Assembly: GCA_038057845.1 (NCBI GenBank)
Contig: JBBUCK010000090.1
Coordinates: 17,183 to 52,984, forward strand
DNA from: Patescibacteria group bacterium
GTDB taxonomy: Bacteria; Patescibacteriota; Minisyncoccia; Phycocordibacterales; JAGLPS01
Length of the DNA stretch: 35,802 bases
Reading direction: 5' to 3'
This document shows, one piece after another, positions 9,954-28,171 of this stretch (position 1 is its first letter; each line of letters opens with the position of its first letter). Both the position numbers and the translations under genes were made by a program. The notes under the pieces are model-generated. The model was given only the letters and a program-made list of their open reading frames with translations, was not told where the DNA came from and did no database searches.

Positions 9954-10024
9954 CGCGGGATGGAGAAGTAGTATCTCGGAAGGCTCATAACCTTCAGGCC
10001 CTGGTGCAATTCCAGGTCCCGCAA
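9954..10024 (+). tRNA. Initiator tRNA-fMet(CAU)
   Basis: CGCGGGA/TCCCGCA with C1.A72 mismatch; GAAGG-CT-CAT-AA-CCTTC anticodon arm; CCTGG-TGCAATT-CCAGG T-arm. Confidence 0.88.
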
Positions 10025-10170: not shown

Positions 10171-10410
10171 ATGTACTTCGTCTATATTCTTCTAAGTTAT
10201 AAAGATAACAGAACATATGTCGGATATGCAAAAAATCTAACAGCTCGGCTATATGAACATAACTGTGGACGTGTAAAAGCAACAAAACATCGTCGACCGT
10301 TTAAAATGTTCTATTCAGAACAATTTCCAACATTAAAAGAAGCAAAAAAACGTGAACTGTGGTGGAAAAGTAGTAGAGGTAGAAGTGAACTCAAGAAGTT
10401 TTTTGTATAG
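10171..10410 (+). CDS. Small GIY-YIG nuclease family protein (79 aa)
   Basis: YFVYIL...TYVG...RL.EHN.G...TK..RP...EA..RE...KS..GR pattern. Confidence 0.88.
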   Translation: MYFVYILLSYKDNRTYVGYAKNLTARLYEHNCGRVKATKHRRPFKMFYSEQFPTLKEAKKRELWWKSSRGRSELKKFFV

Positions 10411-10573: not shown

Positions 10574-10645
10574 GCCGACGTAGCTCAGTGGTAGAGCACT
10601 TCACTCATAAAGAAGTGGTTGGAGGTTCGATTCCTCCCGTCGGCA
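10574..10645 (+). tRNA. tRNA with CAU anticodon (probably elongator Met; Ile2 not excluded)
   Basis: GCCGACG/CGTCGGC-A acceptor stem; CTTCA-CT-CAT-AA-AGAAG (31.39 mismatch); GGAGG-TTCGATT-CCTCC. Confidence 0.88.
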
Positions 10646-14985: not shown

Positions 14986-16413
14986 TTATAATTCTCCCAA
15001 AAACTTTTTACCCACTGAAAAAAGAGTGCTTTCTGCTCCATGAGGAGCCATAAATTGGAGACCGAGTGGTAAATTCTTCCCCTCTCGCGCAACCTCTCCA
15101 GAAGGGATTGAAATAGCAGGTACGCCCACAATGTTTGCCGTAACTGTAAAAATATCAGCAAGATACATTGAAAGCGGGTCATTTGCCTTTTCTCCGATTT
15201 TGAAAGCGGGTGTCGGAGCGGTCGGGGTAATTATGGCATCAACTACATCAAAAACTTTTTCAAAATCACGGCTGATAAGCCTGCGAATGGCGCTTGCCTT
15301 ATTATAATACGCATCGTAATAGCCTGACGAGAGGACATAGGTACCCAGCATGATACGGCGGCGAGCTTCTTTTCCAAAGCCTTCTCCGCGAGTAAGCAAA
15401 TAATCCTCTAGAAGGTCCCCCCCTTCTTTACGCATCCCATATTTAACGCCATCAAAACGCGCGAGATTTGAGGATACTTCCGCAGGCATCAAGATATAGT
15501 AGGAAGCGAGAGAATATTTAATGTTTGGGAGAGAGATTTCTTTGATTTCATACCCAAGTGTGGAGAGCTCCCTAATTGAATTTTCAAAATTTACTTTGAC
15601 ATCCACATCCATACCCGGAGTCTCTAAAACTTCTTTGGGTACGCCAATAACGATTTTCTCCCCTTTTTTCTTTGTTGAATAAACATCTGAAGAAAGGGAT
15701 GTGCTGTCCTTAGGGTCACGCTCTTTTATCACATTAAAAATTATTTCCGCGTCTTCAACCGTTTTTGTGATAGGGCCGATAACATCAAGAGAAGAACCCA
15801 TTGCCATCAAACCATATCTTGAAACAATGCCATATGTGGGCTTTAAGCCGACACAGCCACAAAAGCTTGCTGGCTGGCGAATAGAGCCCCCTGTGTCGGA
15901 GCCCAGCGCGGCTAAGGCCATACCGCCAGAAACTGCTGCTGCAGAACCACCGGATGAACCCCCAGGGACGCGACTAGTATCATGGGGATTCTTGGTAACT
16001 CCAAAAGCGGAATTTTCCGTTGAACCTCCCATAGCAAACTCATCCATATTGGTACGCCCGAGAAAGACAACATTTTTGTCAATAAGTTTTTGCGCAGTTG
16101 TCGCTGTGTAGGTTGCAGTATAATTTTCAAGAATCTTTGAAGCCGCTGAAACTTTTCTTCCCTTAATGAGAATATTATCCTTGATAGCCAAAGGAATACC
16201 TATGAGAATATTTTTCCCTCCCTCATTTATTTTTTCTTGCGCGTGCCTTACTTGCTCCTTAATGTCTTTATAGATTTCAAGATACGCATGAATATCTCTA
16301 TCTTTTTCATTGACAACAGAAAGAAAAGTATTGGCAAGTTCTTCCACGGAAAAATCGCGGGCAAGAAGATGCTCATTTGCTTTTCGTATCGTGAGATTTT
16401 TTAGGTCGAGCAT
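14986..16413 (-). CDS. gatA: Asp/Glu-tRNA amidotransferase subunit A
   Basis: Amidase signature: KDNI, NMDEFAMG, PGGSSGGS, GSDTGGSIRQPA, SSNLARFDG, RRIMLGTYVLSSGYYDAYY. Confidence 0.97.
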   Translation of the reverse strand: MLDLKNLTIRKANEHLLARDFSVEELANTFLSVVNEKDRDIHAYLEIYKDIKEQVRHAQEKINEGGKNILIGIPLAIKDNILIKGRKVSAASKILENYTATYTATTAQKLIDKNVVFLGRTNMDEFAMGGSTENSAFGVTKNPHDTSRVPGGSSGGSAAAVSGGMALAALGSDTGGSIRQPASFCGCVGLKPTYGIVSRYGLMAMGSSLDVIGPITKTVEDAEIIFNVIKERDPKDSTSLSSDVYSTKKKGEKIVIGVPKEVLETPGMDVDVKVNFENSIRELSTLGYEIKEISLPNIKYSLASYYILMPAEVSSNLARFDGVKYGMRKEGGDLLEDYLLTRGEGFGKEARRRIMLGTYVLSSGYYDAYYNKASAIRRLISRDFEKVFDVVDAIITPTAPTPAFKIGEKANDPLSMYLADIFTVTANIVGVPAISIPSGEVAREGKNLPLGLQFMAPHGAESTLFSVGKKFLGEL

Positions 16414-16418
16414 TTCAG

Positions 16419-16682
16419 TTAGAGTCCCGTTAGAGATAGGAAGCGCTTTAGGCGATTTTTAATGTAACGTTTTCCCATACCAGATTTAAGATACATTTCT
16501 CGAGTACAAGCATCTTCCTCGTTTATACACGCTTCATAGTAAATAATTTTAAAAGGACCGCAACCTTTGGTATAAGTGGATTTTCCAGTGTTATGTTGTT
16601 TCAAGCGCTTCCGTAAATCACTTGTTGAACCGGTATACCATTTATTGTCTTTCGTACTTTGCATAATATAAGTGTAAAACAT
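16419..16682 (-). CDS. Small GIY-YIG nuclease family protein (87 aa)
   Basis: MFYTYIMQS...WYTGST.DL.KRL.QHN.G...YYEA...DA..RE.YLKSG.G; reads through the inverted repeat (RFLSLTGL). Confidence 0.9.
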   Translation of the reverse strand: MFYTYIMQSTKDNKWYTGSTSDLRKRLKQHNTGKSTYTKGCGPFKIIYYEACINEEDACTREMYLKSGMGKRYIKNRLKRFLSLTGL

Positions 16683-16704
16683 ACGTATGTTATCTCTAAC
16701 GGGA
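16425..16704. mobile_element. 280-bp element with 14-bp terminal inverted repeats, encoding a GIY-YIG nuclease
   Basis: tcccgttagagata (16425-16438) / tatctctaacggga (16691-16704); flanking direct repeat ttagag (16419-16424, 16705-16710); sits between gatC and gatA. Confidence 0.8.
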
Positions 16705-16992
16705 TTAGAGAATATTTTTGACTTTAAGATAATTTCCACTTTTTTTAGGAAATTCAGCAACGAGAACGTCTGTGTGTGCCCCGCTTTCGTGAGAATTCAC
16801 ATCATCACGAAATACATTCTTAAGAGGCCCTGTAGAAATATCCTTTTCGTCTAAAGAAGTAGACGCTTCTTTAATTTGCTCAATATAATCCAAAATAGAA
16901 TCTATTTCAGTACGATATTTTTCTACTTCGGAAGCATCAAGTTTGAGCCTTGAGAGCGTAGCCAATTTTTCGATTTCTTCACGGGTAATCAT
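16705..16992 (-). CDS. gatC: Asp/Glu-tRNA amidotransferase subunit C
   Basis: MITREEIEKLATLSRL...ILDYIEQI...NVFRDD...YLKVKNIL; upstream of gatA. Confidence 0.93.
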   Translation of the reverse strand: MITREEIEKLATLSRLKLDASEVEKYRTEIDSILDYIEQIKEASTSLDEKDISTGPLKNVFRDDVNSHESGAHTDVLVAEFPKKSGNYLKVKNIL

Positions 16993-17047
16993 GATTTTAA
17001 GTGTACGGATAAAGGTTCCTCGGAGCAAGACCTTGAGATATTAAAAA

Positions 17048-26957: not shown

Positions 26958-28019
26958 TTAGAGCATTCGCTCAAGAGTTTTTTGGTTAGCTGAATGAAGG
27001 TAGGCATTTTCAACAGTAATTTCTCCACGACGTACTAAATCAGCAAGACAGCGATTAAGGTCAATCATGCCTTCTTGTGAGCTTGTTTCAATAACTGTAC
27101 CGATTTCGTGAGTCCTTCCTTCTCGTATAAGGTTTGAAACTGCACTATTGGAAAGTAAAAGTTCGTACGCAGGAATAAGACCACCTGAAATTCGTGGAAC
27201 AAGACGCTGGGAAAAGATACCAATTAAACTTCCTGCGAGTTGCATGCGAATTTGGTCCTGCTGTGTCGCAGGAAAAGAGTCAATGATACGGTCGACTGTT
27301 TGAGCTGCGGTATTTGTATGAAGTGTGGAAAGCACAAGATGTCCCGTTTCCGCCGCTGTCACAGCAGTTGAAATAGTGTCTGGGTCGCGCATTTCGCCAA
27401 TCATCAAGACATCAACATCTTGTCTAAATACACTATGAAGACCTGATTGAAAGCTCATTGTGTCGTATCGAACTTCACGTTGGTCAATAATTGATTTTTT
27501 TTGTTCAAACACATACTCAACTGGATCTTCAATTGTAATGATGTGCTCTAGCCTGTCGGAATTTATCATTTCAATAATAGTTGCGAGGGTTGTGCTTTTG
27601 CCTTGTCCTGTAGGCCCAACAACAAGAAAGAACCCTTGCTGTTTACGCGTAAACAACTCAAGCGTTTCTGGAAGGTTAAGTTCTTTAAGAGTACGAATAC
27701 GTCGCGGAATTAGACGGAGGGCAACACTTATTTTCCCTTGTTGATAGTATGAATTACCTCGAAAACGAGCTTTTTCTTTAAACACATAAGCAAAATCAAC
27801 TTCTTTTTTATCAGCTAAAATTTGTTTTTGTTCTAGAGTCAAAAGCGCGCTCGCAAGCCCGGAAAGAGTTTCTTTGGTAAGTATGTCTTTTTTGACAAGT
27901 GGAATAAGAAAACCTGCCACCCTAAGTGTCGGATGACGGCCTTCGGAGAGATGAAGGTCAGAACCATCTTCGCTGATTATTGTCTCCAACAATTCATCAA
28001 GTTCTTGTTTATAATCCAT
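26958..28019 (-). CDS. pilT: Type IV pilus retraction ATPase
   Basis: GSDLHL, GPTGQGKSTT, TIEDPVE, GEMRD and AAETGHLVLSTLHT. Confidence 0.95.
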   Translation of the reverse strand: MDYKQELDELLETIISEDGSDLHLSEGRHPTLRVAGFLIPLVKKDILTKETLSGLASALLTLEQKQILADKKEVDFAYVFKEKARFRGNSYYQQGKISVALRLIPRRIRTLKELNLPETLELFTRKQQGFFLVVGPTGQGKSTTLATIIEMINSDRLEHIITIEDPVEYVFEQKKSIIDQREVRYDTMSFQSGLHSVFRQDVDVLMIGEMRDPDTISTAVTAAETGHLVLSTLHTNTAAQTVDRIIDSFPATQQDQIRMQLAGSLIGIFSQRLVPRISGGLIPAYELLLSNSAVSNLIREGRTHEIGTVIETSSQEGMIDLNRCLADLVRRGEITVENAYLHSANQKTLERML

Positions 28020-28139
28020 CCCGTTTAGAGACAGGTCGCGGTCTTCCCGCCCTGCCTGTGCTTATTCTTGTAAAAATTCACTCGACTTGTATTTATATTA
28101 TACACCTTATTGTGTTACGCGACCGCGGTCTCTAACGGG
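28020..28139. mobile_element. 120-bp MITE related to the 16425-16704 element, inserted at the pilT start
   Basis: cccgtttagagac...gtctctaacggg ends; inner ggtcgcg/cgcgacc; atccat duplicated at 28014-28019 and 28140-28145. Confidence 0.8.
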
Positions 28140-28171
28140 ATCCATTGCCATATCTAACTTAAATTTAAAAA

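Follow-up and report, generated by a model that had tools for sequence, protein, structure and literature searches.

The stretch of DNA analyzed here (the window, 35,802 nucleotides in its whole length) lies on contig JBBUCK010000090.1 of the genome of an ultra-small groundwater bacterium, a member of the Patescibacteria or candidate phyla radiation (CPR), our source genome G000 (assembly GCA_038057845.1, 755 kb in 112 contigs, 89% complete). Between gatC and gatA, two of its essential translation genes, we found a compact unit whose only gene encodes an 87-aa GIY-YIG nuclease (Table 1). All genes at this site are on the minus strand. The unit begins and ends with arms of 14 nt (TCCCGTTAGAGATA for the one next to gatA), which are 100% complementary and 252 nt apart and thus delimit an element of 280 bp with terminal inverted repeats (TIRs). 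The hexamer TTAGAG, which reads CTCTAA on the gene strand, abuts both arms on the outside. The copy on the gatC side contains the TAA with which gatC ends. The open reading frame (ORF) of the nuclease starts 22 nt past this stop, runs through the opposite arm and is closed only by the TAA of the second hexamer, at 16419-16421. Because the gatC stop is part of the duplicated CTCTAA, gatC retains its stop, and because the nuclease ORF ends in the second CTCTAA, the original stop-to-start spacing before gatA is kept as well. Upon removal of the element and one repeat in silico, the junction reads ...ATTCTCTAA CTGAA ATG. An earlier sequence-only reading of the locus had described 280 bp with perfect 14-bp TIRs, a 6-bp CTCTAA repeat with the gatC stop, an 87-aa ORF that crosses the right TIR and uses the duplicated stop, and a gatC left 5 nt from the gatA start once the element is taken out; all of these details proved to be correct.

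Table 1. Positions of the gatC-gatA element, its flanking genes and related short copies. Numbers refer to the window unless a contig of G000 is named.
Feature	Position	Strand	Remarks
Whole element	16425..16704	-	280 bp, tip TCCCG to tip CGGGA
TIR, upstream end in gene orientation	16691..16704		8 nt before the GIY-YIG ATG; 14 nt, 100% complementary
TIR, downstream end in gene orientation	16425..16438		encodes the nuclease C-terminal residues LSLTG
Target-duplication copy 1, CTCTAA on the gene strand	16705..16710		holds the gatC stop; the empty site of same-genus G001 has a single copy
Target-duplication copy 2	16419..16424		its TAA is the stop of the GIY-YIG ORF; 5 nt before the gatA ATG
GIY-YIG nuclease ORF, 87 aa, single domain	16419..16682	-	the element itself provides no stop codon for it; Pfam PF01541
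gatC, upstream host gene	16705..17028	-	Pfam GatC, E 6.6e-11; mechanically listed ORF, true start possibly an internal ATG
gatA, downstream host gene	14986..16413	-	Amidase, E 3.5e-134; begins 5 nt past the repeat
122-nt gene-less copy	28019..28140		at the start codon of a minus-strand gene for a pilT-like ATPase; its terminal base is the A of the ATG
Second-family short copies	G000 C22:16100-16222; C68:14300-14440; C89:1-250 (two in tandem); C100:5140-5195; C5:556-577		several at contig ends

Within the window the exact 14-mer of the arms is confined to the two arms themselves, and at up to three mismatches there are five matches (the two exact ones included) with 2.29 expected at that tolerance. 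By our own arithmetic, about 0.04 exact 14-nt inverted pairs within 300 bp are expected per 35.8 kb, and the abutting 6-bp direct repeat lowers this chance expectation by a further factor of 1/4096.

An empty gatC-gatA site in relatives had been named beforehand as a check, and such a site was indeed found. Among 40 relatives whose gatC could be placed, the junction with gatA was read in 29, and 28 of these junctions were interpretable. In G001, a genome of the same genus, gatC passes through ...AAAAATATTCTCTAA ACGC ATG into gatA, with one CTCTAA and a 4-nt spacer, and its end before the ACGC ATG reads ...ATTCTCTAA as at the element-bearing locus. None of the 29 loci carries a GIY-YIG insertion or has room for one, since the largest gap is 187 nt and too small for a 280-bp unit; measured between the ends of the high-scoring segment pairs, the gap is at most 60 nt in 23 of the 29. 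In G002, which belongs to the same family (locus L007), the spacer holds a 143-nt gene-less element with tips TCCCGTTAGAAG... and ends TCCCGTTAGAAGCC...CTTCTAATGGGA, which abuts the gatA ATG. This element is independent of the 280-bp unit, so that the gatC-gatA junction has been struck twice, at different positions. Spacers of 120-187 nt at four other loci (L016, L018, L023 and L030) are palindromic or hairpin-rich, three of them AT-rich and one GC-rich; these may be small, unrelated elements lodged at that junction.

The filled allele is present in near-identical form in contigs of four public sequencing runs (X5, X7, X8 and X10) from three studies, with both junctions covered. In reads, an empty allele would appear as ...ATTCTCTAA joined directly to CTGAAATG. 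No contig of the four runs joins across the element, with the limit that contigs drop rare variants. Several of these contigs break exactly at 16425 and 16705 and run into other flanks there, as expected for a repeat.

The repeat has many further copies in the source genome. Searching the assembly with the arm core, for repeat pairs up to 3 kb apart, we found 16 short elements that carry no gene and have the same tips, which together with the GIY-YIG copy makes 17. The short ones measure 65-151 nt, in most cases 115-124 nt. The GIY-YIG copy is the only unit longer than the short ones. Such a genome-wide tabulation had been proposed along with the sequence-only reading, and every pair within 3 kb turned out to be a short gene-less copy, the GIY-YIG copy or a combination of neighboring copies. 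Directly after 14 of the 16 short elements stands an ATG; twelve of these codons open ORFs of 82-912 aa and two lead off contig ends. Judging by their N-termini, we take the host ORFs to be LepA, RsmA, MurA, PriA, Fmt, a PilT-like ATPase and others. With the element taken as TCCCG...CGGGA, 11 of the 16 short copies have perfect 4-5-nt flanking repeats that begin with T (TGGA, TGAA, TGAG, TGGAG, TGGAA and TTGA), and the terminal A of the element together with the duplicated TG.. rebuilds the ATG. Among the copies on an ATG (n = 14), the ACCT(G/A)TCTCTAACGGGA end adjoins the codon in 11 and the other end in three, which shows that the orientation is biased but not fixed.

These start-codon sites are polymorphic. 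The 122-nt copy in the window, on the pilT-like gene, is flanked on both sides by TCCA on the plus strand (TGGA on the gene strand), and the site is empty in G001, G002 and G003. G001 is empty at all five start-codon sites compared with it (lepA, rsmA, fmt, pilT and priA), and presence or absence differs within the genus at all six sites compared. The start codon of rsmA (C9:18716-18839 in G000; loci L074-L076) is empty in G001 and occupied in G000, G002 and G003, where the occupants are of three arm subtypes in three genomes (TTAGAGG, TACGAAAT and TTAGAAAC). This suggests that the rsmA start codon is a recurrent insertion hotspot.

Additionally, a second family of short elements with the ends TCCCGATAGTGTTA...TAACACTATCGGGA has the same tip and also abuts ATG codons (Table 1). 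A nuclease-bearing element of the matching ATAGTG arm type exists in another genome (L053); in the source genome none was found. The predicted minimum-free-energy DNA folds of the 122-nt copy and of the 280-bp element, which were calculated without shuffled controls, both close with the two arms paired. Other explanations for the short copies were tried and rejected. As in-frame insertions or leader peptides they would need lengths that are multiples of three, which 115-124 nt are not, and the upstream ATG opens only short, unconserved frames. As known RNA families they are not recognized: Rfam at gathering thresholds returned five tRNAs and nothing else for the whole window, and the two element regions gave chance-level matches only when E values up to 10 were allowed. 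As integron attC sites, judged by eye, they have a GTT...AAC core order that is the reverse of the attC consensus, and the copies are dispersed among housekeeping genes.

The coding unit itself recurs far beyond this genome. Of 151 genomes sampled from the order, 89 encode homologues of the nuclease (E<=1e-8), frequently more than one each, and so do 38 of 301 genomes sampled from the phylum (E<=1e-20). We read the architecture at the 30 best loci, which are the gatC-gatA copy and the best 29 from other genomes. A 275-285-bp unit with inverted-repeat ends is present at 21 of these 29 (22 of 30 with our own), and in such units nothing but the GIY-YIG gene lies between the arms, with the ORF running into the arm. 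The codon at the junction is ATG in 14 of the 22 units by script, and CGGGATG is printed in three more (L042, L045 and L051), whose ends were misplaced by normalization. In 13 units the nuclease ORF ends with a TGA that overlaps the host start as ATGA. Having no internal stop is therefore a trait of the family, and in the gatC-gatA copy the TAA of its own duplication takes the place of the usual TGA. The ORFs that begin with the rebuilt ATG measure 131 to at least 500 aa and are different host genes across genomes, and duplications of 2-7 bp flank 14 of the 21 other GIY-YIG units. Tandem or nested copies and many subfamilies are present.

The arms vary by lineage (TTAGAG, TACGAA, ATAGTG and AATGTG; more distantly ACCCAGT... 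and CCACGTGAG...), and the two arms of a unit remain complementary throughout. As gene and arms are physically linked, this concerted change reveals a constraint on arm symmetry and does not by itself demonstrate recognition by the protein. The 11-mer tip occurs in 46 of the 151 genomes of the order, up to 41 times, while the reversed control occurs 0-2 times. A GIY-YIG match is present in 22 of the 24 genomes with at least four tips, compared with 67 of the 127 others, related genomes not being independent in this count.

The 87-aa protein consists of one Pfam domain, GIY-YIG (PF01541; residues 1-68, E 2.6e-16, score 60.1 bits with the curated cut-off at 22.6), with no other Pfam match. Among solved structures the UPF0213 protein BH0048 (1ZG2, E 3.2e-11) matches it best, followed by EF2693 (1YWL, E 0.06). 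The stand-alone GIY-YIG proteins of this UPF0213 or YhbQ type share its size and single-domain layout, with identity confined to the catalytic core; to our knowledge they have no described link to flanking repeats or mobility. From the 30 loci we aligned 19 element ORFs, the rule being a length of at least 78 aa and a projected first codon that encodes M, V or L. The 11 loci outside this rule are not all broken, internal stops being marked in four of them. Over the 19 ORFs, conservation is at least 90% in the columns Y, Y, Y.G, R, H, YYEA and RE, which are all intact in the 87-aa protein, and an LK column is likewise common to them. The putative catalytic role of each residue is assigned after the Y6, Y17 and E64 mutants of SsnA, a nuclease discussed below. 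The C-terminal tail varies with the repeat type among the homologues. Over 31 pairs of element ORFs the median ratio of nonsynonymous to synonymous rates (dN/dS) is 0.17, a rough figure because dS of 0.9-2.8 is near saturation, and it indicates that the ORF is under purifying selection.

GIY-YIG is also a classical homing-endonuclease fold, and the only NCBIfam match of the protein is a sub-threshold one to a model for group I intron endonucleases (E 1.4e-6; 28.5 bits, where the cut-off is 56). One could thus regard the gene, placed intergenically between two conserved genes, as a free-standing homing endonuclease of the Seg/Mob kind of T4-like phages, which would cut the empty allele and be copied in by recombinational repair. 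However, homologous elements precede different host genes (lepA, rsmA, fmt, priA, murA and pilT among those in the source genome), gene-less copies have spread to many sites, TIRs and short target duplications are not features of homing, and the protein has no DNA-binding domain beyond its 87-aa catalytic core. We therefore give homing hardly any credence.

Another way to read the data is that these are ordinary non-autonomous MITEs (miniature transposable elements with inverted repeats), moved in trans by an unrelated transposase, in which case the GIY-YIG gene would be a passenger or a selfish gene in one MITE lineage. The ratio of 16 gene-less copies to one coding copy in the source genome would fit, as would two tip-rich genomes that have no GIY-YIG match (G008 and G098), and strand transfer lies outside established GIY-YIG chemistry. 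The source genome does encode DDE and Y1 transposases. Searching it for three transposase families, PF00665 (rve), PF01609 (DDE_Tnp_1) and PF01797 (Y1_Tnp), we found an IS21-like locus on contig C40, an IS4/5-like one on C99 and an rve one on C64, and none of these three DDE loci has TCCCG-type ends, which answers the call for a DDE transposase with the ends of the element. The assembly is fragmented and three families were searched, and the absence of evidence holds within these limits. The only ORF of the element is the GIY-YIG gene, and the rve, DDE_Tnp_1 and Y1_Tnp loci of the source genome have other ends; within the same limits, no transposase of a known catalytic class (DDE, HUH or serine/tyrosine) lies inside the element or shares its ends. 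A pair of arms at a spacing like that of an insertion sequence (IS) is seen neither in the source genome nor, for the order, among the 150 matches listed (307 further matches exist). Against a mere passenger also speak the 275-285-bp layout of gene and repeats, which is kept at 21 of the best 29 loci of other genomes and in many families of the order, and the purifying selection on the ORF. Taken together, we hold the MITE explanation to be unlikely, with a modest chance of being right.

On contig C41 of the source genome (61930-62700, L064) we observed a RAYT/IS200-like Y1 gene that is bracketed by ACGAAGGGCGGTCCTTCGT hairpins, with a third copy of the hairpin inside the ORF. We also considered this RAYT as the mobilizer and rejected it, the flanking hairpins being of a different sequence; the gene and its ACGAAGGGCGGTCCTTCGT hairpins form a repeat system of their own, distinct from the TCCCG elements.

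The closest published system is Ssn (Chenal et al., Nat Commun 2025, PMC11893778). As described in the main text of that paper, SsnA of Neisseria meningitidis is a single-domain GIY-YIG protein of 94 aa, which binds the hairpin repeat CGTCATTCCCGCGMAVGCGGGAATCYRG only as single-stranded DNA (ssDNA), recognizes the ATTCCCGCG...GCGGGAAT stem of the Neisseria NTS repeats and cuts a few bases upstream of the hairpin repeat; Ssn genes are typically flanked by repeats, and the authors compared the NTS-ssnA-NTS arrangement to IS and to repetitive extragenic palindromes (REPs) with RAYT (PMC11893778). Both proteins are thus single-domain GIY-YIG nucleases of about 90 aa, and both genes lie between inverted copies of a repeat that recurs many times without the gene. 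The element stem begins (A)T(T)CCCG...CGGG(A)AT like that of the NTS, with a resemblance that is confined to the TCCCG/CGGGA stem base. Unlike the published repeats, in which a self-contained hairpin spans 20-50 nt, each end of our element is one arm of a long-range inverted repeat. The 4-6-bp duplications, the empty sites in relatives, the insertion at start or stop codons, the ORF without its own stop and the nearest solved relative, a UPF0213 protein, set the CPR elements apart as well. The published SRM motif has no match at a distance of 10 nt or less from any of the 17 elements, nor is there one close to the two further GIY-YIG genes of the source genome. In view of this, the relation to Ssn is best worded by analogy, as one of working alike and not of membership in the Ssn family (cd10448). 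Neither Patescibacteria nor Candidatus appears as a word in the main text of PMC11893778.

The Ssn precedent (PMC11893778, in its main text) invites the thought that the pair serves the host: a domesticated nuclease would cut ssDNA at its cognate hairpins, for example to tune recombination or natural transformation, the repeats at gene starts would be regulatory as RNA or DNA hairpins, and the elements would be immobile relics. The insertion appears fixed in the populations of three studies, the short copies stand in operons exactly before start codons, and the predicted folds pair the two ends, which all agrees with such a role. It is difficult to reconcile with the presence/absence variation within the genus at six of six sites, with the target duplications, with the three repeat subtypes on the rsmA start codon of three genomes and with the many subfamilies and tandem or nested copies. 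Polymorphism, duplications, subtypes and tandem copies are the marks of repeated insertion, and a host role and mobility are mutually compatible. As an explanation in place of mobility, we judge the host-serving role to be improbable, with a small chance only.

Compared with IS and their MITE derivatives (for example the Correia elements of Neisseria and MITEAba12), the units described here likewise have TIRs and short target duplications, many gene-less copies with the ends of the coding copy, presence/absence polymorphism and copies inside operons. They differ in that the sole gene is GIY-YIG and not a DDE, DEDD, HUH or serine/tyrosine enzyme, that the coding element measures only about 280 bp, and that the insertions sit precisely on start codons, which they rebuild. 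REPs and bacterial interspersed mosaic elements (BIMEs) together with the REP-associated tyrosine transposase RAYT, reportedly treated by Ton-Hoang and colleagues in 2012, are similar in having one small nuclease gene between inverted copies of a multiplied, hairpin-forming repeat, and in that protein and repeat diverge together between lineages. The enzyme there is an HUH Y1 protein and not GIY-YIG, the RAYT-like gene of the source genome has its own hairpins, and we know of no report of target duplications for REPs. In the full-text literature, which leaves most subscription journals outside, we found no description of a GIY-YIG gene inside a unit with TIRs and target duplication and none of start-codon-targeting MITEs in CPR.

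With TIRs and a target duplication, 17 copies at unrelated sites and empty sites in relatives, the family has the structural features of a transposable element, and on these sequence comparisons the gatC-gatA unit is a mobile element that integrated at the end of gatC. The sequence-only reading had proposed a tiny mobile element that is mobilized by, or carries, a GIY-YIG nickase. The idea of a mobile element gains support from the empty G001 site, the recurrent unit and the gene-less miniatures with the same tips, whereas mobilizer and nickase are putative roles of the protein. In the source genome, within the limits given above, no conventional transposase was found between the same TIRs, and empty-site alleles do exist. 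We lean toward the view, with some confidence, that this is a family of very small TIR-bounded CPR elements whose only gene, an Ssn-like and UPF0213-related GIY-YIG gene of about 86 aa, mobilizes them by hairpin-guided cutting.

How the nuclease would mobilize the element can be sketched by analogy. The behavior of SsnA, the shared (A)TCCCG...CGGGA(T) stem base and the arms paired in the fold lead us to propose hairpin-guided cutting. The nuclease would recognize the two repeats, which in ssDNA probably pair to form the base of a hairpin, as SsnA does with the NTS. It would then cut at the element boundaries and, in a staggered fashion, at the target site, which would yield the 4-6-bp duplications, and the host would finish the transfer by ligation and gap repair. 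Copies without a gene would be mobilized in trans. The form of the substrate, the positions of the cuts and the joining step are all part of this tentative scheme, and the joining step is its weakest part, because GIY-YIG enzymes are not known to transfer strands.

Several observations weigh against mobility driven by the nuclease. GIY-YIG enzymes cut DNA by hydrolysis and are not known to have a strand-transfer activity, so that the element would not be self-sufficient in the manner of a DDE transposon, and no activity, binding or movement was observed in this analysis. The four public runs hold only filled alleles and give no sign of current mobility at gatC-gatA. The two tip-rich genomes in which the GIY-YIG match is missing are 99% (G008) and 92% (G098) complete. 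Most short copies in the source genome belong to internal subtypes (AGAGAC or AGAGGC, then CGCGGTC) that are unlike the gatC-gatA copy past position 12. The SRM motif is not enriched in the source genome, with four matches compared with 0-2 in 10 first-order Markov simulations, and the dN/dS estimate is rough, as said above.

Furthermore, the gatC-gatA copy is itself atypical of the family: it occupies a stop codon, 12 nt upstream of the gatA ATG, where the family usually sits on start codons, and its duplication is 6 bp and not 4-5 bp long. A caveat already attached to the sequence-only reading, that the flanking repeat resembles the ttagag of the TIR, stands, since TTAGAG, the duplicated hexamer, also makes up positions 6-11 of the arm. 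As a consequence, the end of gatC and the arm together read TCTCTAA-TCCCG-TTAGAGA on the gene strand, a 7-bp hairpin. By our own estimate, a random 6-mer matches one of the arm's 18 six-mers in about 0.4% of cases. That the duplication equals the repeat core could point to another origin of the junctions. A target resembling the element end may have been used for this insertion.

Further small GIY-YIG genes and hairpin loci were seen along the way. At 10171-10410 of the window (plus strand), between tRNA genes at 9954-10024 and 10574-10645, lies a distant GIY-YIG gene of 79 aa, 38% identical to the element nuclease. It follows a tRNA gene, the GC-rich hairpin blocks between repeat the tRNA 3'-terminal CCCGCA, and there are no TCCCG-type arms. 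A third small GIY-YIG gene in the source genome (C31:12040-12570, L002) is intact, encodes 80 aa and is bracketed by CCCGCC...GGCGGG hairpins; downstream follow 19 nt that duplicate the 5' end of a tRNA, a further hairpin and then the intact tRNA, as if an element had inserted in a tRNA gene with a long duplication that preserves a working copy. In G003, upstream of lepA (L071), a diverged duplicate of lepA codons 1-17 comes first, then a short hairpin (CCCAGTTGCAAAGCGAAGCTTGCAACGGG) and the full lepA, which, as read from the sequence, is a gene-end duplication beside a hairpin element.

More far-reaching is the proposal that these units are autonomous transposons of a new enzymatic class, in which an 86-87-aa GIY-YIG protein is the sole function and the ends are recognized as an ssDNA hairpin. 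This is a tentative proposition, which seems to us nearly as likely to be right as wrong. If it is true, these units would be, at about 280 bp, the smallest self-mobilizing elements known. By landing on a start codon (here on a stop codon), borrowing a stop from the duplicated target and handing the ribosomes to the host gene, they would colonize the essential operons of minimal genomes without killing the host. If the nuclease does move the element, a GIY-YIG route would join the short list of DNA transposition chemistries and set a new lower size limit for autonomous elements. Each lineage would offer a tiny nuclease with a defined, putative recognition arm of 13-16 nt, and such pairs are potential matched enzyme/sequence tools; Chenal et al. 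proposed matched sets of this kind as ssDNA tools in the main text of their paper (PMC11893778). For annotation, the 80-90-aa "GIY-YIG family proteins" and the start-codon hairpins of CPR genomes are best labeled as mobile elements and not as host genes or regulatory sites. Finally, the family illustrates how selfish DNA is able to persist in genomes of 0.5-1 Mb with almost no non-coding space, by inserting at gene boundaries and restoring the start and stop signals it lands on.

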